From the NCBI GenBank assembly GCA_012517325.1, contig JAAYVF010000107.1, forward strand, positions 3,032-67,031: a DNA stretch of 64,000 nt, read 5' to 3'. Under the pieces are notes generated by a model. The model searched no databases. It saw only the letters and a program-made list of their open reading frames with translations, and was not told where the DNA came from. Positions 24,056 through 50,420 of the stretch are shown one piece after another. The translations under genes were made by a program, and so were the position numbers. The stretch comes from Myxococcales bacterium (GTDB lineage: Bacteria > Lernaellota > Lernaellaia > Lernaellales > Lernaellaceae). Every line of letters starts with the position of its first letter. Within the stretch, counting starts at the first letter, position 1.

Positions 24056-25366
24056 TTGCTATTTGTAATTCGCGAAGGTCAGGCAAAAGTATTTCTCACT
24101 AAACTTAACCAGACCGGTTCGGTTGCTTGGGAGTATTTTGAAGAGGCGGAATTCAGTTCCGAGGATTTGTTGTTATGTGGTGATGGCCTATATTTCGTTC
24201 GTGAACAAAGTCTATCGCGTCTGACGAAAAATGGCGAATTATCCTGGCAGGACGAATATCCCTATCAATATGGAAACATGCTTTGCGATGAAAATGATCA
24301 GGTTTTGTTGTTGGTCACTACAGCGGGCGCACCTGCGACCGCGATACTTTATCGTTATTCGATCGATGGTGAAAGAGAAACCATCGGCGAATATTATCTT
24401 GGAGAATTTGAGGCGAATCCGGCCATCCTTTATCCACTATCCGAGGCAAATTATTCAATCCATGTCGAAAGTGAATATGAGATGTATGAACAAATATTGA
24501 TAATTAATAAAATAAATGGGGAAGAAACGGGACGAATTGAAATCGAAACATCGTTGGGCGAAATGCTACCTTTTAAAATTGTGCGCTCCATGAATGACGA
24601 TTCGATTATTGTCCTATTACAAGCGGGCTGGGGAAATACCTACCTACAAAGATATAAAACGGACGGAACGCTTCTCTGGGAAGAAAAGCTGGAAAATATT
24701 GCATTTCCGACCTTGAACGTAAGTGAAAACAATGAAATCGTTTTAGTGGCGGCGGAATCAAACGACGAGGAATATTTACAAGGCCTTTATGTTATTAGAA
24801 AAATATTAGTAATTAAAAATGATGAAAACGGAAAAGATATGTCCCAGAATGTAATTATTCCACTTTTTGGTGGCGACCAGTCCGCAATCGGTGAAGCGGA
24901 TTTTATTATATTAGCTGGTGATAAGGTTGCTTTTATTGCTTCTTATTGTGCTGAACCATATTACCAAATATATCGTTCTATTATCTCTCAACGATTCACC
25001 ATGGACGGCAAACAAGAAATGTATGGGATAATGGACACAAAATATTCCTATTTAAGCATGGAAGAAACCTATGTCGACGCCGCGAATAATCAATATGTGT
25101 TGAGCCAAGGGGGACCAACCGGAGGGGAAATCGGTAACGAGGATATTGTCTGCGGTAAGATCAATGAAATCGGCCAGATTCAATGGATATATCATTACGA
25201 CTGTGGCGGTGGTCTGTTGGATCGTCCTTGGGGAATGGAAGTGGACGCTGAAGGCAGCGTCTACCTAGTGGGCGATGTGTGCCATGAGCAACCGGATATT
25301 TTCGACGATGATACAACCGTCGAGACCGACGAAGATAATGGCGACGAACCAGGCTGCGGCTGCTGA
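24056..25366 (+). CDS. AT-rich (foreign-composition) hypothetical protein ending in acidic linker plus GCGC-COOH; start uncertain
   Basis: A 436-aa ORF in a region of roughly 38% GC. The C-terminus is ...DIFDDDTTVETDEDNGDEPGCGC*. The track start is TTG with no SD and no obvious signal peptide, so the N-terminus may be mis-called or the gene degraded. Confidence 0.5.
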   Translation: MLFVIREGQAKVFLTKLNQTGSVAWEYFEEAEFSSEDLLLCGDGLYFVREQSLSRLTKNGELSWQDEYPYQYGNMLCDENDQVLLLVTTAGAPATAILYRYSIDGERETIGEYYLGEFEANPAILYPLSEANYSIHVESEYEMYEQILIINKINGEETGRIEIETSLGEMLPFKIVRSMNDDSIIVLLQAGWGNTYLQRYKTDGTLLWEEKLENIAFPTLNVSENNEIVLVAAESNDEEYLQGLYVIRKILVIKNDENGKDMSQNVIIPLFGGDQSAIGEADFIILAGDKVAFIASYCAEPYYQIYRSIISQRFTMDGKQEMYGIMDTKYSYLSMEETYVDAANNQYVLSQGGPTGGEIGNEDIVCGKINEIGQIQWIYHYDCGGGLLDRPWGMEVDAEGSVYLVGDVCHEQPDIFDDDTTVETDEDNGDEPGCGC

Positions 25367-25707
25367 TTCGTCCGCCTGCCGCCGTTTTCACATTCCACTT
25401 CCGCTCGGCATGGCCATCGATCCTAGCGGATCGAAGACCATGGCACCCCGAAAAGGATCGCACCCTTCGAGACGGACAAGGACCTCCTCAGACGGCGGTG
25501 AAAACCGGACACTTGTCAAATTTACGAAAACCTTTTCTTTTCCATTGGAAAACAAATGTCATTCAGCCTGCGGCAAGATCCACCCGACCGACTGGCGATG
25601 ATGCGTCTACCTATAGCCCCGACTGGCGAGAAGCGAAATTCGTGCTATTAAGGGGCAAACTTCGCGGTCGGCCGCGGCGCGGCCGGTCGCCGGACGAGGG
25701 AGCATCA

Positions 25708-27141
25708 ATGTTCGCCACCTACGATGAACTGCTGAATTACTGCACCACGAACCGCCTGGAAATGATCGACCTGAAGTACATCGATTTGTTCGGCCGCTGG
25801 CAGCACCTCACCATTCCGATCAAGCGCCTGTCGCCGGCGCTGTTCACGGACGGCGAGCCGTTCGACGGGTCGTCGGCGCCCGGTTACAAGAAGGTCGAGT
25901 CGGGCGACATGGTTATCGTGCCGGATATCCGGACGGCCGAGATCGACCCCTTCTGGAACTATCCGACCCTGAGCCTGATCTGCAACATCTGCGAGGCCGA
26001 CACCAAGCAGTTGTTCGGCCGCGATCCGCGCGGCGTGGCCGACCGGGCCGAGCAATACCTGCGCGCGACGGGCATCGCCGATTGCAGCCTGTGGGGGCCG
26101 GAATTCGAGTTTTACATTTTCGATTCGGTCAACGTTCGCGAGGACATCAACACCAGCTTTTACATGATCGATTCGGTCGAGGCCGACTGGAACAGCGGCA
26201 TGGAAGGGCAGAACCTCGGCCACAAAATCCCGCGCAAGGGCGGCTACCACGCGGTGCCGCCGCTCGACGCCATGTTCCAACTGCGCGCCGAAATGTCGAT
26301 GACCCTCGAAAAGATGGGCATCCCGGTGCGCTACCACCACCACGAGGTCGGCGGCCCGGGCCAGTCGGAAATCGAAACGCTGCTCGACACCCTGACCCGC
26401 ATGGGCGACAACGCCATGCGCACCAAGTACATCATCAAGAACATCGCCCAGCGCCACGGCAAGACGGTCACCTTCATGCCCAAGCCGCTGTTCAACGAAG
26501 CCGGCAGCGGCATGCACTTTCACCAGTACCTGGTCGACGCGGCGGGCCGCAACCTGTTCTACGACGAAAAGGGCTACGCGGGACTTTCGGAACTGGCGCG
26601 GCATTACATCGCCGGCCTGCTGCTTCACGGCCGGGCCCTGGTGGCGCTGACCAACGCCAGCACCAACAGCTACAAGCGGCTGGTGCCGGGTTTCGAAGCC
26701 CCGACGAAGCTCTTCTTCGGCCAGGCGAACCGTTCGGCGGCGGTGCGGATTCCCAAGTATGCCGCGAAGCCGGAGGACAAGCGGATCGAGTTTCGGCCGC
26801 CCGACGCGACGGGCAACCTGTATTTCGCGATGGCGGCGCAGCTCATGGCCGGCATCGACGGCATCCGCCGGCGCCTCGATCCGACCGAATTGGGCATGGG
26901 GCCTTACGACGTCAACGTGCGCGACATCCCCGCGGCCGAGCTGGCGAAGATCCAATCGGTGCCCGCGTCCTTGCAGGAAGCCTGCCTGGCCCTCGCGGCC
27001 GATCACGAGTTTTTGCTGGAAGGCGGGGTGTTCAATCGCGGGATCATCGACACGTGGATCGACCATAAGATCAATCACGAATACTACGCCGTGCGGAACC
27101 GCCCGCACCCCTACGAAATCAAGTTGTACTTCGACCTGTAG
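25708..27141 (+). CDS. glnA: glutamine synthetase (type I)
   Basis: 477 aa from the ATG at 25708 (GAGGGAG upstream). Typical GS blocks are present: ...KPLFNEAGSGMHFHQYL..., NSYKRLVPGFEAP, RIEFRPPDA. Confidence 0.9.
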   Translation: MFATYDELLNYCTTNRLEMIDLKYIDLFGRWQHLTIPIKRLSPALFTDGEPFDGSSAPGYKKVESGDMVIVPDIRTAEIDPFWNYPTLSLICNICEADTKQLFGRDPRGVADRAEQYLRATGIADCSLWGPEFEFYIFDSVNVREDINTSFYMIDSVEADWNSGMEGQNLGHKIPRKGGYHAVPPLDAMFQLRAEMSMTLEKMGIPVRYHHHEVGGPGQSEIETLLDTLTRMGDNAMRTKYIIKNIAQRHGKTVTFMPKPLFNEAGSGMHFHQYLVDAAGRNLFYDEKGYAGLSELARHYIAGLLLHGRALVALTNASTNSYKRLVPGFEAPTKLFFGQANRSAAVRIPKYAAKPEDKRIEFRPPDATGNLYFAMAAQLMAGIDGIRRRLDPTELGMGPYDVNVRDIPAAELAKIQSVPASLQEACLALAADHEFLLEGGVFNRGIIDTWIDHKINHEYYAVRNRPHPYEIKLYFDL

Positions 27142-42538: not shown

Positions 42539-42841
42539 CCGGTGTTGATTAACGAAAAAGTGATGAGTTTTAGAGTGGTGTATTACCCATCTAATCCAGC
42601 CATTCTGTAGATGATTTTGCAATTTGTGGAACCGCTCGCCTCACGAACAACCTACTGATTAACAGAAAAGTAAAAACGATTTTCGAAATTTTTTTTCCGA
42701 ATTTCGGATGTTGTCTTCCGCTCCCAAAGCCTAAGTACTTGAAATCACAATATCGCGCATTTGGCATGTCCAATGCTTCATGTCTCATTATCGCGCATTA
42801 ATTATTGTGATGACAATAATCGTCAGCGAAAAGGATGGTCA

Positions 42842-44215
42842 ATGAAAATCAATAAGCACCTCCTGGCTAATATCAGGATATTCAAGTGGGCACGCACAAA
42901 GGGCTTTCTTCTGTCATTTCTTGGCATCGTGATCATTGCCGTTTTCTATACATTCGGGACGGCAAAATGGGCTTGGAAAAGTGTATTCATCGGTCGACCG
43001 GCCTTTATCCCGGTGCAAATTTCCAACCAGGTAAACAGGCTGGAATTGAATGCCACGATTGGCGGCATTCCGTTTTTTCTGGCTCGTTCGCCTGCCGCGG
43101 CAGCTTATTGGTGGAAATATCATTCAATCGGCAATGGCAAGGACATTGCGGACTGCGATGTGAACGGCGGTTCGGCACTTGAATTGATCGATACGGAATA
43201 TCCCGATTCGGATAACGCGAATGGCGTTTGCCGGAGACATATTCAAGTTCGTTGTTCGACCGATAAAAACGGGGCTGACCAAACTTTAATTATCGAAAAC
43301 AAAGACATCTCTTTTAGTTATATTCCCAAGGGAGTCAAACCGGAAGACATCTCATCGGCGTCGAATATCCCCGAGGAATGCCAAACGGTTGCGTGGCCTC
43401 AATACCGGAACCTGTTTTTATTGACCAATGTTGAAGCGAAGCCGGATAAACAGGGTTCGATCGTAGTAGTCCCACAAGCAATTTATTGGCGTAAAGTCGC
43501 ATGGTCCAGTTATCAGGAAGAGCCGATTAAGCAGAGCGCCGCCGTCAGTCAGACGACAACAGTCGAAGCGAAACAGTGCGTTCCTCACTTCTTTTTCAAT
43601 GCGACGAATTCTCCCGAGTGCCAATTTGTCCGCGAGATACTGGTCAAACCATCCGTAGTGAATGAAAGAGACCCACAGTATTCCCTAACAGAGAAAGTGA
43701 AAAAGGGTGCCACTTATCTGGTCCCCATCATTTTGTATTGTGTTCTCTGGTTGGATACATTTTTATTTTGCTTTGTTCTTGGCGCCGGATTGATGTATCT
43801 GATTGTCAATAAGAAACCCAACAATCCGACAGTGAACAATGGCGATGCTGAATTGGGGCATGTCAACGAAGAACGAAGGGAATTGCGTCAATTCCTGGAG
43901 TGGCTGGAAGTTATCGGCCCGGCAATCGGTTTTTGGTTGACCGTCGGCTCGTTATTGTTGGCTTTCGAACCGGGGACTTTCGCCGATCAAGACAAAATCG
44001 CTTTTGCCTCGGGAATTTCCATGGCCATGACGGCAACCTTTGCCGGTCTGCTCATGCGCATCCTGGCCTTCACTGGCGATCGTCTGGTGTTACAAATCCT
44101 TTATCTTTACCACGGCGCCGACAAGGAAGGTTTTTTCCCGAAACCGAAAAAATTGGTGATGGAACCCAGTGGTGACACGCCCAAGGCCGGAGAGGAAAAA
44201 GGAACCGGACAATGA
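42842..44215 (+). CDS. ExbB/TolQ/MotA-family-like proton-channel protein with a ~300-aa N-terminal extra-cytoplasmic extension
   Basis: AAGGA lies upstream. The N-terminus is basic with TM1 at ~22-42. A ~300-aa Cys-containing hydrophilic domain follows. Three C-terminal TMs then match the TolQ/ExbB core: the last two, ...IGPAIGFWLTVGSLLLAF...ISMAMTATFAGLLMRILAF, resemble it. The gene lies in a low-GC island. Confidence 0.5.
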   Translation: MKINKHLLANIRIFKWARTKGFLLSFLGIVIIAVFYTFGTAKWAWKSVFIGRPAFIPVQISNQVNRLELNATIGGIPFFLARSPAAAAYWWKYHSIGNGKDIADCDVNGGSALELIDTEYPDSDNANGVCRRHIQVRCSTDKNGADQTLIIENKDISFSYIPKGVKPEDISSASNIPEECQTVAWPQYRNLFLLTNVEAKPDKQGSIVVVPQAIYWRKVAWSSYQEEPIKQSAAVSQTTTVEAKQCVPHFFFNATNSPECQFVREILVKPSVVNERDPQYSLTEKVKKGATYLVPIILYCVLWLDTFLFCFVLGAGLMYLIVNKKPNNPTVNNGDAELGHVNEERRELRQFLEWLEVIGPAIGFWLTVGSLLLAFEPGTFADQDKIAFASGISMAMTATFAGLLMRILAFTGDRLVLQILYLYHGADKEGFFPKPKKLVMEPSGDTPKAGEEKGTGQ

Positions 44216-44715
44216 TGCAAAGGGTTAATTCGCGAGATGATTTGTTTTTATCGGCTCTGGATCTCTACACTCTTTTATCATTGATGTTCATCGGTGTGGC
44301 TTACCTGACGACGTATGGTGGCATGGCGGGAAGGGATCTCGAACTGCCTACCGCAGCCGGCGATTCCACGCAACCGTCGCCGATGGATATGCCGGTTGTG
44401 CGATGGGTGACTACCGGTTTGGAAAATGGCAAATGCACCGTGAAATTCAATCCGCTTGGCAAGTTGGCCGGATTGATCCCAGCCGCGACTATAGAAGTAC
44501 CTTGTCGGCCTGCTGCTTTTCTGGGAGGGGAACGAGGCCCCGATCCGACGCTTGCTTTAGCGGCGCAAAGATGGCGCGAACTCAACGCGGGTAACGACCG
44601 CGTGCCGCGAGTGGCTATCGCTTGTGAACGGGTGGATATCGAATCCTGCGCGCGATTGCAATGGGTATTCGGCGAGGCTGGTTTCTTAACCTTTGCTGCG
44701 GTCGCCGGCAATTAG
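44212..44715 (+). CDS. ExbD/TolR-like protein
   Basis: 167 aa with a single TM (LDLYTLLSLMFIGVAYLTTYGG) followed by a periplasmic domain with ExbD-like spacing (DLELPTAAG...; VPRVAIACERVDIESCARLQWVFGEAGF). The start overlaps the upstream stop as ATGA. Confidence 0.45.
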   Translation: MMQRVNSRDDLFLSALDLYTLLSLMFIGVAYLTTYGGMAGRDLELPTAAGDSTQPSPMDMPVVRWVTTGLENGKCTVKFNPLGKLAGLIPAATIEVPCRPAAFLGGERGPDPTLALAAQRWRELNAGNDRVPRVAIACERVDIESCARLQWVFGEAGFLTFAAVAGN

Positions 44716-44731
44716 TGATGGAGTGTCGATA

Positions 44732-46384
44732 ATGAATGTCCTGACCCAACCGAATCGTTTTCGCGCGCTCTTGCGCCTCTGGCGGCGCGATCCCGCAAAC
44801 CCCGTTGCGCAAAAATTTTTTCGGGAATTCACGGCATTCTGGCAACCGCTAGCCATTAGAGTTCTTACCGGATTTTCGCAGTGTCTCACCGAGCCTATTC
44901 CTCCGCTAAAGCAACCATTGGTCAGCAATGGAGCGATGCATTGGCTGATCGGTTGTGTTTTACGAGAATTGGCGAACCGGACGATTCTGAATAGTGCCTT
45001 CGATCCGGCATCGGAGATGATCCGCGTTCAAAGCAAGATCGTTGAAGAACTGATTGCCAAACTTCACGATGATAATGTTTCGAATGTAAAAATAAAATTG
45101 CGGAATGAGTGTTTGAAACATTATCTTCGTGAAATCGTCAAATATTCGGCCGGGCAAGGGATCCCAGTTTTTAACTGGATATTGCGAGATCCCAAGTTTC
45201 TTAACGAAAAATGCCCCTGGGGTGATTGTCAACGACAAAAAGATTTACCCGGCGATCATTTGCGTCTTGGCCTTGACGATCTGGCAACTCATTTCCGGCA
45301 GGGTTGGCGATGGGCCAAAGAGATTCCCTATGATCCCATAGCCGAGGTGTATTTGCCCAAACGACCGAGCCTGACGATAGCCACGATTCCCATGTTGACC
45401 AATTTACCAGCCAGTAGCGGAGCTGTTGCGATGATTGTTGTGGTTGCAGCGAACCTCATGATTCCTTCTATTCAAGAAGAGATGTATTCCGGCGGGCAAA
45501 GCGGTGCGAACTATTTCGACGCCGAACGACATGAGCAAGTTATACCCTTACCGATCGATCCGGACGGATTGACCATGGCAATTCCGAAAGAATCAGAGAA
45601 TGAGGATGTTTTTATTATGAAAGAAAATGCGGCGGAAAAGGTGGAGCAAGCCGCAAAAAGGTGGTCGGCGGAAAATGCCTCTGGTTCCCATCCTGATTCA
45701 TTGCTCACGCAAGGGCCGAAAGACAACATGTCCAATTCATCTGGAGGGATGCATATGGATTCGCAAAGGCCTTCTTTTGGCAACCCCACCACCGTCGGTG
45801 CCGGTAGCGGAGGCGGCGGTTTGGATGGATCGCCGAACGGGGCGGCCCATGCGGTATCCACGATTGGCGTGGGTGGGGGCGGCGGTGGCAGCCTGAAAAC
45901 CGGCGGCGGTGGTAGTGGAAAGACCACGACCACCATCGGCGCAATGGGCGGAACAGGTGGCGGTATGGGAGGGTCGATTTCTTCCGGCGCTGGGGGAAAC
46001 GGCGGCGGGAAGAAACCGACAACGACGGTTGGCGCGGCGGGAACCGGAACGGGAACGGGTCAGGCCGGTTACTATACCCCGGTGACGACCAACAGGCGGG
46101 AGATCGAAGCGATACCGGGGGTGGCGCGATTGGCGCGAACGATCGCCCACTACCGAAATCAGATCCTCGCCCGGAGTTCCGAAGTGCCGGATAAATGCCA
46201 AGGCTTGGGAGTCAAAATCGAAAATGGCGTGCTGATCGCCAAGGGATACACGGTCAACGCCGGCGGAGATCACGCCACGCTCTCGTTTGGTATGCGGGCG
46301 GGGCAAGATCGTTCCGCGGTTGTCCGTCAGGCTTACAACAACGTTTCCGCCGTGCTCGAAGATTGTTTGAGCAAGTTGAAATGA
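44732..46384 (+). CDS. TonB/TolA-like-architecture protein: cytoplasmic N-domain, central TM, long Gly/Thr/Ser-rich linker, C-terminal globular domain
   Basis: The start is MNVLTQPNRF. A hydrophobic segment AVAMIVVVAANLMIPSI lies at ~aa 245-262. A ~150-aa low-complexity stretch (GGGGSLKTGGGGSGKTTTTIGAMGGTGGG...) is followed by a ~100-aa C-terminal domain. No sequence-level family match. Confidence 0.4.
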   Translation: MNVLTQPNRFRALLRLWRRDPANPVAQKFFREFTAFWQPLAIRVLTGFSQCLTEPIPPLKQPLVSNGAMHWLIGCVLRELANRTILNSAFDPASEMIRVQSKIVEELIAKLHDDNVSNVKIKLRNECLKHYLREIVKYSAGQGIPVFNWILRDPKFLNEKCPWGDCQRQKDLPGDHLRLGLDDLATHFRQGWRWAKEIPYDPIAEVYLPKRPSLTIATIPMLTNLPASSGAVAMIVVVAANLMIPSIQEEMYSGGQSGANYFDAERHEQVIPLPIDPDGLTMAIPKESENEDVFIMKENAAEKVEQAAKRWSAENASGSHPDSLLTQGPKDNMSNSSGGMHMDSQRPSFGNPTTVGAGSGGGGLDGSPNGAAHAVSTIGVGGGGGGSLKTGGGGSGKTTTTIGAMGGTGGGMGGSISSGAGGNGGGKKPTTTVGAAGTGTGTGQAGYYTPVTTNRREIEAIPGVARLARTIAHYRNQILARSSEVPDKCQGLGVKIENGVLIAKGYTVNAGGDHATLSFGMRAGQDRSAVVRQAYNNVSAVLEDCLSKLK

Positions 46385-48174
46385 TTGCAACGAAAGGGGT
46401 GTCGTTCATGGGTGCGCGATTGCCAGCGGCGATTATCCTGATGGTCTCTGTTTTTTTGCTTACCGGCGGAGCGGCGCTTTTACAAGCGCAACCCGCCCCG
46501 GCGGAGCCGCCCTCGCTGGAAAGTCCGCCCCCCGAGGGTGGGGCGACTCCCGCCGATACCCCTACCGGCGGCGAGGAGCGCATCGCTTTTCCGAGCCTGT
46601 TGCCCTCGGACCCGAACGAAGCCATCCGCCGAATCGAGGAAAACTTGCTGACCGATCAGGTGGATCACGCTTTTATCTACCTGACGGCCATTCAGGATTT
46701 TTATCAAAACTCGCAACTCTATGCCGATGGCAAGGACAAGGACGCCTATCTCAGTTTTCTGGCGAGTAATGAGACGCGTTTCACCCTGTTGCTGGCTGAC
46801 GCCTATTATCAGCTTCTCGACAACGGCGGGTTGGTCGGTAATGTAAATCGGTTGCAATTGGCCACCGCGGCGTTCGACGAGGCGATCAATTCCAATTCCG
46901 GAACGATCAAATATTATCTCGGTCGCGTGGACGCGCTGTTTCAGCTCAACGAAACCCGGGATGAAGGTGGGCTGAATGACGACAATCTGGCGCGGCTGGC
47001 CGACGCCTTGATGGCGGAGGCCGACGCCTCTCCCGGCTTTTGTAATTATCAAAACGTCAAGGATGAGAATCTCCAATATCACTTCATCGTTTATAAAATG
47101 TCGGTTACCGCCGGAGAAACGGCGGGCGCCAGCTGTCCCTGCGATGTTTATCAATATGAGTGGCGGCGGATTAGCAGCATCGTCAGCCGCACGGCGATCC
47201 TGGCTTTGCAAACGCGCTCGCCCGAACAATCAATGATTCTGGCGCCATCATTCATCCGCTTAGCCACCTGGGGTCGGACGTTCCATCCGGCAATTGGATT
47301 GATTTTCCCGTTCCCCGGAGCCGACGGCCAACCGGCGGGTTTCCGCTTTGACGAAATCATCGACAACGCCGGTTTCGACGGCGGTAATTTGAAGGCCGCC
47401 ATCGAACTGGCCCTGGCTGGTTACTACCATGACGCTCGCTTGGCTGATCGCTGTCTGGCTTTCGGGCGCCTGGGGTTGCGGGACGTGCGTTCACCGATCC
47501 TACGGGCCAAAGCCGCGTTGAAGATGTCGATGGTGTTCTATGATCCCGTGTGGGGCGATTTTTTCATACCGGGCGAAGAATTGAAATTCCGGCGCGATTT
47601 GAAATCATCGGCATTTTTCGCCGCTTCCCAATGCATCACCTCGCTCGACGGCCAGGAAACCGAGGCCACCGGGACCAAGGATCTGCGGGCGGCCTGCGTC
47701 GACCAACTCGGCTTGATGGGCGCGGCCTTATTGGCCGATTACTCTGACGCGGAAATACCGTCGGCCGATCTGGCTTCGGTGCTGCGCAATCCTGCTTTGA
47801 CAACGCTGAGCGATCAAGACCTTAGCAGTGATTTCCACCTCGAGTTGGCACGGTATTACCGCTTGCGCAAAGACAATGATCAAGCGGCTCTGCATTATCA
47901 ACTGGGAATTCGCCGCATGGCCCAGGATATCGCCTTCGTGATGCGACAAAAATTTCAAACGATTCCGGCCGGAACATCGGCGACTGAAATTGATGTCGCG
48001 TTGGTCGAATGCTGTCAGGGTGAAATCCGCGATTTCAAACGGCAGATCGAACTGGCTAAGACAGTGGTCAAGGATTTTTCTCCCCATTCGACGCTCCGGC
48101 AGCAAATCGAAAATTATTCGCAATTCGCCATGAAACTGGATGCGCCTTTCACCAACGGGGGGCTCGGATTATGA
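46381..48174 (+). CDS. secreted hypothetical protein (signal peptide), part of the Ton/Tol-like module
   Basis: The ATG at 46381 overlaps the upstream TGA as ATGA; an alternative ATG is at 46411. The signal peptide is ...MGARLPAAIILMVSVFLLTGGAALLQA|QPA, followed by a ~560-aa mature protein with no recognised domain. Confidence 0.5.
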   Translation: MIATKGVSFMGARLPAAIILMVSVFLLTGGAALLQAQPAPAEPPSLESPPPEGGATPADTPTGGEERIAFPSLLPSDPNEAIRRIEENLLTDQVDHAFIYLTAIQDFYQNSQLYADGKDKDAYLSFLASNETRFTLLLADAYYQLLDNGGLVGNVNRLQLATAAFDEAINSNSGTIKYYLGRVDALFQLNETRDEGGLNDDNLARLADALMAEADASPGFCNYQNVKDENLQYHFIVYKMSVTAGETAGASCPCDVYQYEWRRISSIVSRTAILALQTRSPEQSMILAPSFIRLATWGRTFHPAIGLIFPFPGADGQPAGFRFDEIIDNAGFDGGNLKAAIELALAGYYHDARLADRCLAFGRLGLRDVRSPILRAKAALKMSMVFYDPVWGDFFIPGEELKFRRDLKSSAFFAASQCITSLDGQETEATGTKDLRAACVDQLGLMGAALLADYSDAEIPSADLASVLRNPALTTLSDQDLSSDFHLELARYYRLRKDNDQAALHYQLGIRRMAQDIAFVMRQKFQTIPAGTSATEIDVALVECCQGEIRDFKRQIELAKTVVKDFSPHSTLRQQIENYSQFAMKLDAPFTNGGLGL

Positions 48175-48983
48175 ACGCCGCGCTGAAATGCCTGCTCCGC
48201 CTGGTGTTATTGTTCTGGCTGACACCCCTGCTCATGGGAATGGGTAGCGATCCTCTTGGCGAACCAGAGGCGACTGCGGCGATAACCGAGCCGCGAGGAG
48301 TTGAAGGAGTCGCCAAGAAACCGGTCGAGGAATGGATCGAGATCAAATCGGCAGGCGAAACGCGATGGGTGAAATTCGTTCCGGGCAATGAAGCGACCCG
48401 TCCCAATCGGGCGACGCGCCGTTTGAATCTGTTATCGGCTCGGCGAATGAATTGGCCGGAAGCCGTGGCGACTCCGACGGTTTCCCCCGCGGCGAGAATG
48501 CGCTACTTCTTCGAGGAAGACTGCCGGGCTTGGCTCGCCTCACTGACCGTGACCGATCCTACGCGCCTGCACGGCTTGTATGTGTTGATCCTCTTCCAGA
48601 CCCAGCGCATCAATGATATGTACGATTCCGTTTATGCCGATTATCGCCGAACCATGATGCCGGTCGGATTGCCGACTCCCGAGGCGGTCTATCCGGCCGA
48701 GACCTTGGCCACGCTGGTCGGCGCGTATCTGATGGCCGCGGATATTTCGGTGCGCGCCGGCTGGAAATTGGATCCGTTGCGCAAACTCGAAAAGAAGATT
48801 GCCGCTAGCGGGCTCAGCGATCCGATGGTATTGCGGCTGCCCTTTGGCGCTTACAATCCGCCTTATGCCGAATTGTTTCAGCCGTTTTCAATGACGATCG
48901 AAAAACGCTTGGATCCTCCGCCAGCGCCGGAAAACAGGACGGCAAAACAAGTTGTGGGAACGACAGACAAGGCGCCTGAATAA
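48171..48983 (+). CDS. secreted hypothetical protein (signal peptide), last gene of the module
   Basis: The start overlaps the upstream stop as ATGA. The signal peptide is MNAALKCLLRLVLLFWLTPLLMGMGS. 270 aa. Confidence 0.5.
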   Translation: MNAALKCLLRLVLLFWLTPLLMGMGSDPLGEPEATAAITEPRGVEGVAKKPVEEWIEIKSAGETRWVKFVPGNEATRPNRATRRLNLLSARRMNWPEAVATPTVSPAARMRYFFEEDCRAWLASLTVTDPTRLHGLYVLILFQTQRINDMYDSVYADYRRTMMPVGLPTPEAVYPAETLATLVGAYLMAADISVRAGWKLDPLRKLEKKIAASGLSDPMVLRLPFGAYNPPYAELFQPFSMTIEKRLDPPPAPENRTAKQVVGTTDKAPE

Positions 48984-49109: not shown

Positions 49110-50420
49110 ATGCAACCTGGCTACCTAATCGCTTGCGGTTTGTTGATCCTGCTGCTGATCTCCTTCAGCACAGGCTGCGGTACCGAAGGCTCTTCAACCG
49201 ACTCCGGACAATCTCGACCGACTGCCGATGATGACAATGATGATGACAACGACAATGACGACAACGACAACGATAACAACAACGATAACGACAACGACGA
49301 CAACGACAATGACGACAACGATGACAACGACGATACCACGCCCGCGGTTTCCATTCCCATCCTGGGCGTCGAGGTCGAGGACGCCACGAGCTATCGCCTG
49401 ATGAACCGGCTGCTGCCGATGAACACGGGCGATCTGTGGCCCGCCGCCTGGGCCGAGGACGACCGGCTCTATACCGCTTGCGGCGACGGGCTTGGTTTCG
49501 GATTGATTCCCGGCGATTTGGTGGTGTGCGTGGTCGACGGCAAACCGCCGGCGATGGCTGGGCACAACATTCCCGGGGCGCGCAGCGCGGCCGTCGCCGG
49601 CCTCTGGGGCCCGGAAATCCTGAAGCTGAACCGCAAGCCCACGGGGATGACCTGCGTCGACGGCGATTTGTACCTGTTTTCGCAAAACCTGGCCAACCGC
49701 TGGTCGGACGATCCGTTCGGGTATGCCGAAAACGGATCGGTTTCCGTCAGTCACGACCACGGTGCGACCTGGGATTACGATCACACCGCGCCGCTGTTCA
49801 CCGACCGCGTATTCACCACCGGCTTTTTTCTCGATTTCGGTCGCTGCGGCGAGCACGCGATCGACGACTTCGTCTACGTCTACGGCCTCGACGGCAACTG
49901 GCGGTGGTCCGAGACGGTTGCGCCCACCGAGCTCTTCCTCGCCCGCGTCCCGCGCGACCGAATCATGGAGCGATCGGCCTGGGAGTTCTACACCGGCGAG
50001 TCCCAGGGCGAACCGATCTGGTCGGCCGCGATCGCGGACAAGGCGCCGGTGCTGACCGACGAAACGCGCTACAGCGACGACTGGACCGGCGTGGCGCAAG
50101 GGAGCGTCGTCTTTTTACCGGCGTTGAACCGCTACCTGTACAGCACCCGGGCCAAAAACGAATGGATTTTTCACGAGGCGGAAAAGCCGTGGGGCCCCTG
50201 GACGAAAGTGACGGTGCGCGAATGGACCGGCGGCTGGACGGAAGAGTACCACGCCGGTTATCCGGTCACGATTCCCGCCAAGTTTCTGGACGCGGACAGC
50301 CGTGGCGGCTGGCTTTTAAGCAGCCTCTCCTCCAGCACCTTCGACGGCCTCTACTACAACATGAATTTCCGCCGGTTCGAGCTCGAGGTCGCCGCGGAAA
50401 CGAAAACGACGAATCATTAG
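49110..50420 (+). CDS. lipoprotein with poly-Asp/Asn linker and C-terminal domain of unknown function (possibly DUF4185/sialidase-like propeller)
   Basis: GGAAGGGG lies upstream. It opens MQPGYLIACGLLILLLISFSTGC|GTEG, with a ~40-aa (D/N)n linker and then a ~330-aa Trp-rich domain. Confidence 0.55.
   Translation: MQPGYLIACGLLILLLISFSTGCGTEGSSTDSGQSRPTADDDNDDDNDNDDNDNDNNNDNDNDDNDNDDNDDNDDTTPAVSIPILGVEVEDATSYRLMNRLLPMNTGDLWPAAWAEDDRLYTACGDGLGFGLIPGDLVVCVVDGKPPAMAGHNIPGARSAAVAGLWGPEILKLNRKPTGMTCVDGDLYLFSQNLANRWSDDPFGYAENGSVSVSHDHGATWDYDHTAPLFTDRVFTTGFFLDFGRCGEHAIDDFVYVYGLDGNWRWSETVAPTELFLARVPRDRIMERSAWEFYTGESQGEPIWSAAIADKAPVLTDETRYSDDWTGVAQGSVVFLPALNRYLYSTRAKNEWIFHEAEKPWGPWTKVTVREWTGGWTEEYHAGYPVTIPAKFLDADSRGGWLLSSLSSSTFDGLYYNMNFRRFELEVAAETKTTNH

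Follow-up and report, generated by a model that had tools for sequence, protein, structure and literature searches.

A rare, compositionally foreign gene cassette encoding a candidate ion-driven envelope motor and tether in a Myxococcales genome assembly

A low-GC island of five coupled genes

We analyzed a 64,000-nucleotide stretch of contig JAAYVF010000107.1 from a Myxococcales bacterium (assembly GCA_012517325.1), hereafter the window, focusing on an island of low guanine-plus-cytosine (GC) content that carries five plus-strand genes, g1 to g5 (Table 1). The first two encode a distant member of the MotA/ExbB/TolQ superfamily and an ExbD/TolR-like partner, the third a bitopic protein laid out as a tether or transducer, and the last two proteins with export-type hydrophobic N termini. 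We read the island, with a probability of roughly 0.6, as an operon that was acquired horizontally, is self-contained and encodes a divergent ion-driven envelope motor of the '5:2' kind represented by MotAB, ExbBD and TolQR, equipped with its own tether and most likely driven by protons.

The genes are tightly packed, with stop/start ATGA overlaps at 44212 (g1/g2), 46381 (g3/g4) and 48171 (g4/g5), and 16 nt between g2 and g3. We place the g1 start at the ATG that follows an AAAGGA Shine-Dalgarno sequence; TTG starts that would lengthen the protein are conceivable, but the gene calls did not use them. An independent gene call on the 102.7-kb source metagenome contig (ERZ928041 / ERR1876141) gave the same five genes, and homologues of g1, g2 and probably g3 are found elsewhere in matching order, indicating that the genes are real. 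These results confirmed the frames and overlaps of the original prediction, which had been made from the DNA letters, and hydropathy analysis reproduced its membrane topologies.

GC content falls to 0.476-0.584 per 1-kb bin across the island, compared with 0.59-0.64 in the adjoining flanks and a window mean of 0.6125; the drop that had been proposed is present, whereas the flank value of 67% given with it was too high. The anomaly is much sharper at third codon positions (GC3), at 0.53-0.66 for g1-g5 versus 0.78-0.86 for six flanking genes, and this contrast points to acquisition by horizontal transfer, in line with the initial proposal. No tRNA, Rfam family or att-like flanking direct repeat was found at the island borders.

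The AT-rich spacer upstream of g1 probably holds a putative promoter or operator. Within it lies an imperfect 24-nt direct repeat with the core ATCGCGCATT, its copies spaced 38 nt, which is a possible operator or promoter element. Promoter and terminator scans of the locus returned nothing above chance.

g1 is a remote A-subunit homologue with a periplasmic domain

Hydropathy analysis of g1 revealed four transmembrane (TM) segments (~21-44, 296-314, 355-375 and 386-410). The protein, which contains 8 Cys in total, runs from TM1 through a periplasmic domain (~45-295), TM2 and a short cytoplasmic loop to a TM3-TM4 hairpin (355-410), after which ~45 aa form a C-terminal tail. In an AF2 model (predicted local distance difference test score, pLDDT, 83.6; predicted template modeling score, pTM, 0.76), TM1 leads into a beta-rich domain spanning 43-274, followed by TM2 as a long helix, a short loop and the TM3-TM4 hairpin.

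Profile searches placed g1 at the very edge of known families. Residues 342-411 matched PF01618 (MotA_ExbB) at 22.9 bits (E 7.4e-5), a score equal to the gathering cut-off of 22.9 and thus a pass without margin; relatives of g1 scored 15.4-30.3 bits, with four of the ten tested lying above the cut-off. NCBIfam ExbB reached 13 bits against a cut-off of 135, and a search of Protein Data Bank (PDB) sequences with the g1 profile gave no match. When the g1 model was searched against the PDB with Foldseek, 31 of the 50 top matches were MotA, PomA, ExbB, TolQ or ZorA chains, all A subunits of 5:2 motors, and TolQ chains were recovered with probabilities of 0.92-0.95.

Residue conservation supports the same placement. 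Alignments of g1 with E. coli ExbB and TolQ by hhalign were weak (P 0.004-0.007) and in register, pairing P360, T367 and T399 of g1 with ExbB P141, T148 and T181, and G402 and L403 with G184 and L185; M394 occupies the position of ExbB E176 and L408 that of P190, so that neither the Glu nor the Pro is kept. ExbB P141, T148, T181 and P190 have been named as conserved (PMC12215075), and three of these four pore residues are therefore retained in g1, Pro190 being the exception. A 24-member alignment of the g1 family shows no variation at G359, P360, G402, L403 and R406 and very little at T367 and T399, and four periplasmic Cys are conserved; the ~250-aa periplasmic domain between TM1 and TM2 bears putative disulfides. 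Together, these results identify g1 as a true if very distant member of the superfamily of 5:2-motor A subunits; its MotA-like four-TM topology is combined with an extensive periplasmic insertion, and the part exposed to the cytoplasm is minimal. The MotA/ExbB/TolQ-type assignment with an extra N-terminal TM segment and periplasmic domain, first made from the sequence alone, is borne out by the PF01618 match at cut-off, the pore residues and the Foldseek results.

g2 resembles the B subunits TolR and ExbD

The g2 protein has a single TM segment at 11-29 by hydropathy, and a profile search recovered 24 homologues. The N-terminal helix carries an invariant motif, SRDDLFLSALDxYTLLSL, in which Asp17 is present in 24/24 sequences, and four Cys of the periplasmic alpha/beta domain (75, 98, 138 and 146) are likewise invariant in the 24-sequence alignment. 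In the AF2 model (pLDDT 81.3), the periplasmic domain is predicted to adopt the TolR/ExbD alpha/beta fold, and the best PDB fold match was TolR. Alignment of the g2 family to E. coli TolR by hhalign (P=0.0024) set D17 on D23 and 'LELP' on 'VDLP', and the corresponding comparison with ExbD gave P=0.054.

Library searches were silent: g2 had no match to PF02472 or any other Pfam or NCBIfam family at E <= 1 and none in PADLOC, and its family profile matched no PDB sequence at E <= 10. The protein thus has no ExbD profile match, yet it presents the residue and fold features that define a B subunit; the ExbD/TolR-like label proposed at the outset stands on the membrane Asp17 and the TolR fold and fails the PF02472 profile check.

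g3 has the layout of a periplasm-spanning tether

Hydropathy and composition divide g3 into a cytoplasmic N-domain (1-228), a TM helix (229-247), a periplasmic region with a linker (~331-460) rich in Gly (33%), Thr (14%) and Ser (10%), and a small C-terminal domain enclosed by Cys489 and Cys545. In six sister loci, the proteins encoded third share this plan, with a Pro- or Pro/Lys-rich linker in most, and their family aligned with the window g3 over its full length (hhalign probability 72%, E 3e-5). Neither the window g3 nor its sister proteins matched any Pfam family, including TonB_C, FHA and GYF, and a profile of the N-domain found no match among PDB sequences. The SHLS motif, defined as Ser-x3-His-x6-Leu-x3-Ser, was absent from g3 and from 6/6 sister proteins, whereas the same pattern detected it in an E. 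coli TolA control.

For the C-terminal domain, hhalign returned P=0.38 against the TonB C-terminal domain and P=0.014 against TolA domain III. The TolA alignment, which spans residues ~446-550, is weak and in register on the first Cys and a Gly-containing turn, offering a lead toward a possible TolA/TonB-type head domain.

The cytoplasmic domain, which precedes the anchor, distinguishes g3 from TonB and TolA. In the gliding machinery of Myxococcus xanthus, GltG and GltJ combine a cytoplasmic FHA or ZnR/GYF domain with a TM helix, a disordered linker of ~124 aa and a C-terminal domain that, by prediction, docks on GltD in the periplasm (PMC11761067), and the layout of g3 is closer to theirs than to that of TonB or TolA. 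The TonB/TolA architecture originally assigned to g3 accordingly survives in its anchor-linker-head plan, and not in the SHLS motif or in the ~228-aa cytoplasmic domain.

Separately, we noted a 22-nt inverted repeat within the g3 coding sequence, its arms 91% complementary and separated by a 27-nt spacer.

The conserved unit comprises four genes and is rare

The order g1-g2-g3-g4, mostly with overlapping stops and starts, occurs in seven distinct loci, and two short contigs (L004 and L005) carry g1-g2-g3 up to the contig end. The conserved unit is the four genes g1-g4. Named four-gene members all belong to Myxococcota: Archangium violaceum, Sorangium sp. So ce448, Minicystis, Polyangiaceae and Myxococcales metagenome-assembled genomes.

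An exhaustive search of 1.84 billion cluster representatives with the g1 profile returned 167 proteins at E <= 1e-3 and did not reach canonical ExbB, TolQ or MotA. About 27 of the 167 are full-length relatives, and the remaining ~140 are shorter proteins (~330-365 aa) that have only the C-terminal hairpin in common with g1. Each family cluster that we checked held 1-4 members. A scan of GTDB genomes with g1 yielded only a distant Aequorivita ExbB, a scan of JGI metagenomes gave no matches with the profile of g1 and two short loci with that of g2, and the cassette was not found on the viral contigs and plasmids searched. Between the L006 and L007 loci, the ratio of nonsynonymous to synonymous substitution rates (dN/dS) was 0.30-0.56 for g1-g4, indicating purifying yet relaxed selection on fast-evolving genes.

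Scans of the five window proteins and of the sister-locus proteins against Pfam, NCBIfam, PADLOC and PHROGs produced only the borderline MotA_ExbB match, and the searched literature held no description of the family. The cassette is thus undescribed in these libraries and in the literature found, as originally suspected, and constitutes a variant of proton-motive-force (PMF)-motor envelope systems not described before.

g4 and g5 are orphans

The distal genes diverge from this picture of conservation. Neither g4 nor g5 matched Pfam, NCBIfam, PADLOC or PHROGs, in agreement with the earlier observation that they carry no TolB or Pal/OmpA features. Among 5.8 billion proteins, the sole relative of g4 is one 97% identical copy, which belongs to a near-identical cassette (g2 99%, g4 97%) on a separate 8.8-kb contig where the frames stay open.

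In the sister loci, g3 is followed by a homologous family of 684-838-aa (lipo)proteins, with lipobox-like N termini in 4/6. Nothing detectable links window g4 to this family (hhalign probability 0.25%; hmmsearch 2 bits), nor did hmmsearch, hhalign or tblastn connect either g4 or g5 to it. We considered whether g4 and g5 jointly correspond to the longer sister protein and rejected the idea: the sequences are not similar, and g5 carries a signal sequence of its own. The window g4 is the positional counterpart of the sister proteins and presumably a periplasmic or outer-membrane partner of g3. By contrast, g5 has no counterpart in other loci, L011 encoding an unrelated multi-TM protein at that position, and is specific to the window locus, outside the conserved cassette. 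With g4 and g5 orphans and g5 not conserved, the five-gene parallel to TolQ-TolR-TolA-TolB-Pal drawn in the original prediction fails.

Neighborhoods and a related three-gene cassette

Across the ~8 contexts examined, neighboring genes vary by locus and are repeatedly defense-like in sister loci (Table 1), a feature that the original prediction had missed. We asked whether the cassette belongs with the glyoxylate-shunt or DUF4185 genes of the window and rejected this: these genes have native GC3, and the sister loci lack them. The DUF4185 gene lies a short way downstream of the island; it has a GC3 of 0.80 and encodes a protein with a signal- or lipobox-like N terminus followed by a long Asp/Asn low-complexity tract.

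In L006 and L007, the gene immediately upstream of the cassette, in the same orientation, encodes a BTAD + AAA_16 (SARP/AfsR-like) protein, which is a possible dedicated cassette regulator. FeeM-like acyltransferase, heme-oxygenase-like and trypsin-like genes occur farther upstream in both loci.

The shorter g1 relatives (about 140 clusters) sit in a three-gene cassette. Its MotA/ExbB-like protein (345-353 aa) has the topology of g1, the partner carries the same TM-Asp helix motif, FLSxxD(L/F)xxL(L/I)S, and the third product is short and Pro-rich, with a single TM segment. The L013 copy of this cassette is located on an integrase/relaxase/NikA element and adjoins a complete PDC-M01 A+B candidate defense pair.

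Elsewhere in the window, its lowest-GC kilobase (39% GC) contains a 436-aa open reading frame that has no Pfam match and lies directly upstream of a glutamine synthetase gene. It is a further compositionally foreign orphan.

Table 1. Coordinates and context of the island, of other window features and of related loci
Feature	Locus	Position	Strand	Description
g1	Window	42842-44215	+	457 aa; A-subunit-like, distant MotA/ExbB/TolQ superfamily
g2	Window	44212-44715	+	167 aa; B-subunit-like, ExbD/TolR-like
g3	Window	44732-46384	+	550 aa; bitopic, candidate tether/transducer
g4	Window	46381-48174	+	597 aa; signal-like N terminus by hydropathy, 8 Cys
g5	Window	48171-48983	+	270 aa; N-terminal hydrophobic segment, ATGA overlap with g4
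Upstream intergenic region	Window	42539-42841	+	AT-rich, 39% GC (composition and sequence)
Direct repeat	Window	42738-42761 / 42776-42799		Spacer upstream of g1
Inverted repeat	Window	45063-45084 / 45112-45133		Within g3
g3 C-terminal region	Window	46195-46384		Weak TolA domain III alignment
436-aa open reading frame	Window	24056-25366	+	Lowest-GC kilobase
Glutamine synthetase gene	Window	25498-27141
DUF4185 gene	Window	49110-50420	+	Downstream of island
Neighbors	Window			Glyoxylate-shunt genes, aldo-keto reductase, DUF4185
g1-g2-g3-g4	L006			Archangium violaceum GCA_000733295.1; neighbor SARP-type regulator
BTAD + AAA_16 gene	L006	6711-8540		Immediately upstream of cassette, same strand
g1-g2-g3-g4	L007/L008			L007 neighbor SARP-type regulator
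BTAD + AAA_16 gene	L007	6685-8475		Immediately upstream of cassette, same strand
g1-g2-g3-g4	L009	6601-11136		Neighbors SIR2_2+Metallophos and SIR2_2 genes (PDC-S60 / Aga-SIR2 matches)
g1-g2-g3-g4	L010/L011
g1-g2-g3-g4	L019	1890-5207		GCA_052035985.1; neighbor EAD1-Trypsin_2-Peptidase_S8 protein (subtilase/IetS matches)
g1-g2-g3-g4	L020	5704-9477		Neighbor 1257-aa pentapeptide/WD40 protein (PDC-M28B match)
Three-gene cassette	L013	9001-10915
Three-gene cassette	L014	1122-3208
Three-gene cassette	L012	406-1793

Discussion

Our results suggest how such a motor might work. By homology with known motors (A5:B2), g1 would form a membrane ring, putatively pentameric, with a putative g2 dimer in its pore, where Asp17 of g2 would face the conserved Thr367/Thr399 ring of g1. 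PMF-driven protonation and deprotonation of Asp17 would then be converted into rotary or conformational work. The tether g3 may bind the motor through its TM helix and perhaps also its 228-aa cytoplasmic domain, as GltG is predicted to attach to AglR. Its flexible, Gly-rich linker of ~130 aa would span the periplasm, allowing the disulfide-bracketed C-terminal domain to engage secreted g4, and perhaps g5, at or under the outer membrane. Energy or a signal could thus be passed between the inner membrane and the outer envelope.

Several observations weigh against an operon of this kind. The SHLS motif missing from g3 is the one by which TonB and TolA bind their motors, and the C-terminal domain of g3 has no significant similarity to those of TonB or TolA by hhalign. 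The motor mechanism of g1 may also differ, because equivalents of ExbB Pro190 and Glu176 are absent, Arg406 in TM4 is invariant and there is almost no cytoplasmic domain. Finally, with g4 and g5 being orphans, their role as partners is drawn from position and export signals.

As for physiological role, our leading guess, a tentative one, is accessory envelope surveillance or conflict; energizing some outer-membrane process comes second. Surveillance or conflict is favored by the patchy, island-like distribution, foreign composition, fast evolution, variable distal parts and defense-type neighbors. If the association with defense or conflict is true, motor-like complexes acting as envelope sentinels would extend beyond Zorya. 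A bolder extension, which we regard as unlikely, is that g1-g4 and the three-gene cassettes together form an unrecognized clade of 5:2-type motors whose A subunit carries a periplasmic sensor domain and which serve envelope surveillance in anti-phage or inter-bacterial conflict. Were it correct, the clade would represent a second motor-based immune system after Zorya, working by a distinct mechanism, its sensing end made up of a TonB/GltG-like tether and a secreted partner that diverges fast.

To our knowledge, proton-driven 5:2 motors (MotAB, ExbBD, TolQR, GldLM, AglRQS and ZorAB) are the only known means by which Gram-negative bacteria deliver energy or signals across the periplasm. Each motor family that has been understood has led to a new process, from flagellar rotation, nutrient import and division to gliding and type IX secretion, and phage defense. 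Recent surveys covering relatives of MotAB/ExbBD and periplasmic force transducers have described other new families and point out that more remain (PMC12505986, PMC12204202). The cassette is relevant to the 5:2-motor and myxobacterial fields, and its presence in cultivable myxobacteria (Archangium violaceum and Sorangium sp. So ce448) makes it experimentally accessible.

Alternative readings and comparison with known systems

The first alternative, and a somewhat doubtful one, is a Zorya-like anti-phage or inter-bacterial conflict system, in which g1-g2 and the periplasmic parts (the g1 domain, g3 and g4) would sense envelope perturbation and respond through the g3 cytoplasmic domain or an uncontrolled proton leak, the motor itself working as outlined above. 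Like Zorya (ZorA-ZorB plus ZorC/D, E or F/G), the cassette has a very divergent MotAB-like pair, is patchy and often stands beside defense genes. Sporadic occurrence at very low frequency (the 167 matches in clusters of few members), the foreign composition of the island, the non-conserved but repeatedly defense-like neighbors (L009, L019 and L020), the mobile three-gene relative beside the PDC-M01 pair in L013, fast evolution, and the lack of a detectable relationship between window g4 and its sister counterparts all fit such a system. Yet no component, in the window or in sister loci, has a PADLOC or PHROG match, and the cassette encodes no nuclease, helicase, NADase or other recognizable effector. 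In place of ZorC/D/E-type soluble effectors, its partners are a membrane tether and secreted proteins, and the g1 tail of ~45 aa is short beside the long tail of ZorA. In addition, the window neighbors are metabolic or envelope genes, viral contigs and plasmids did not yield the cassette, and ~8 contexts are too small a sample for enrichment statistics, in genomes of myxobacteria that are rich in conflict genes anyway.

Less probable still is an accessory motor of the Agl-Glt (gliding) or Agl-Nfs (spore-coat) type, in which proteins of the outer envelope would be moved or assembled by a motor resembling TolQR and a tether resembling GltG/GltJ. Agl-Glt of Myxococcus xanthus (AglR/AglQ/AglS motor, GltG/GltJ tethers, periplasmic GltD) shares with the named four-gene members both the phylum and a TolQ/TolR-like motor. 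GltG and GltJ share with g3 the succession of cytoplasmic domain, single TM helix, long periplasmic linker and small C-terminal domain (PMC11761067), and the large sister g4 (lipo)proteins, with their frequent lipobox-like N termini, recall GltD and other Glt lipoproteins. Against this, neither g3 nor g4 matches FHA, ZnR/GYF, TonB C-terminal domain (TonB_C) or TPR profiles, g1 has its 250-aa periplasmic insertion and almost no cytoplasmic domain, and the cassette holds one B-subunit gene where Agl-Glt has two. Agl-Glt comprises at least 17 proteins and is a lineage-wide trait, whereas the four-gene cassette is rare and not conserved among Myxococcota, is horizontally mobile, and adjoins no glt- or nfs-like genes in any locus.

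An ordinary extra paralogue of Ton or Tol-Pal, different in sequence only and serving TonB-dependent uptake or outer-membrane tethering, is highly improbable. The order of motor A subunit, motor B subunit and tether does recall exbB-exbD-tonB and tolQ-tolR-tolA; several sister g3 proteins have Pro-rich linkers, and the weak alignment of the g3 C terminus with TolA domain III is in register. Resemblance to Ton (ExbB-ExbD-TonB) further includes the Pro/Thr/Thr pore residues of the A subunit, the Asp in the B-subunit helix, the predicted TolR/ExbD-type periplasmic fold of g2 and the anchor-linker-head plan of g3; resemblance to Tol-Pal includes the five co-directional genes of the window and the best Foldseek probabilities of g1, which fell to TolQ. 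However, no TonB-dependent receptor, TolB beta-propeller or OmpA-like Pal is encoded in or next to any locus, and neither g4 nor g5 resembles the latter two. The conserved unit has four genes, not five, and the SHLS motif, PF02472, TonB_C and NCBIfam ExbB membership (13 bits against 135) are all wanting. The family profile never reached canonical ExbB, TolQ or MotA, g1 has an invariant Arg406 and lacks equivalents of Pro190 and Glu176, and putative disulfides occur in g1, g2 and g3. Moreover, the extra TM helix and periplasmic domain of g1 and the 228-aa domain ahead of the g3 anchor are foreign to both Ton and Tol.

The least probable reading, that the island is a decaying or non-functional remnant of a horizontal acquisition whose g4 and g5 are spurious, would account for the lack of g4 and g5 relatives beyond the 97% identical copy and for the relaxed selection in the family, but it is contradicted by five intact, tightly ATGA-coupled frames, by the export signals of g4 and g5 and the 8 Cys of g4, typical of periplasmic proteins, by the open frames of the near-identical copy, and by the retention of every family-invariant residue in g1 and g2.

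A divergent 5:2-type motor with its own tether would, finally, have company among systems that are neither Ton nor Tol. Periplasmic force transducers of the von Willebrand factor A (vWA) type, encoded beside TolQR-like motors, were recently recognized as tethers of this sort (Williams-Jones et al. 2025, PMC12204202). They end in a vWA domain and many carry SHLS, whereas g3 has neither feature, and they occur in different taxa, namely the PVC group, Proteobacteria and Bacteroidetes (PMC12204202). The vWA cassettes show that such non-Ton, non-Tol systems exist and are mostly unstudied (PMC12204202), and the cassette described here presents a compact four-gene case in which A subunit, B subunit and tether are all unusual.

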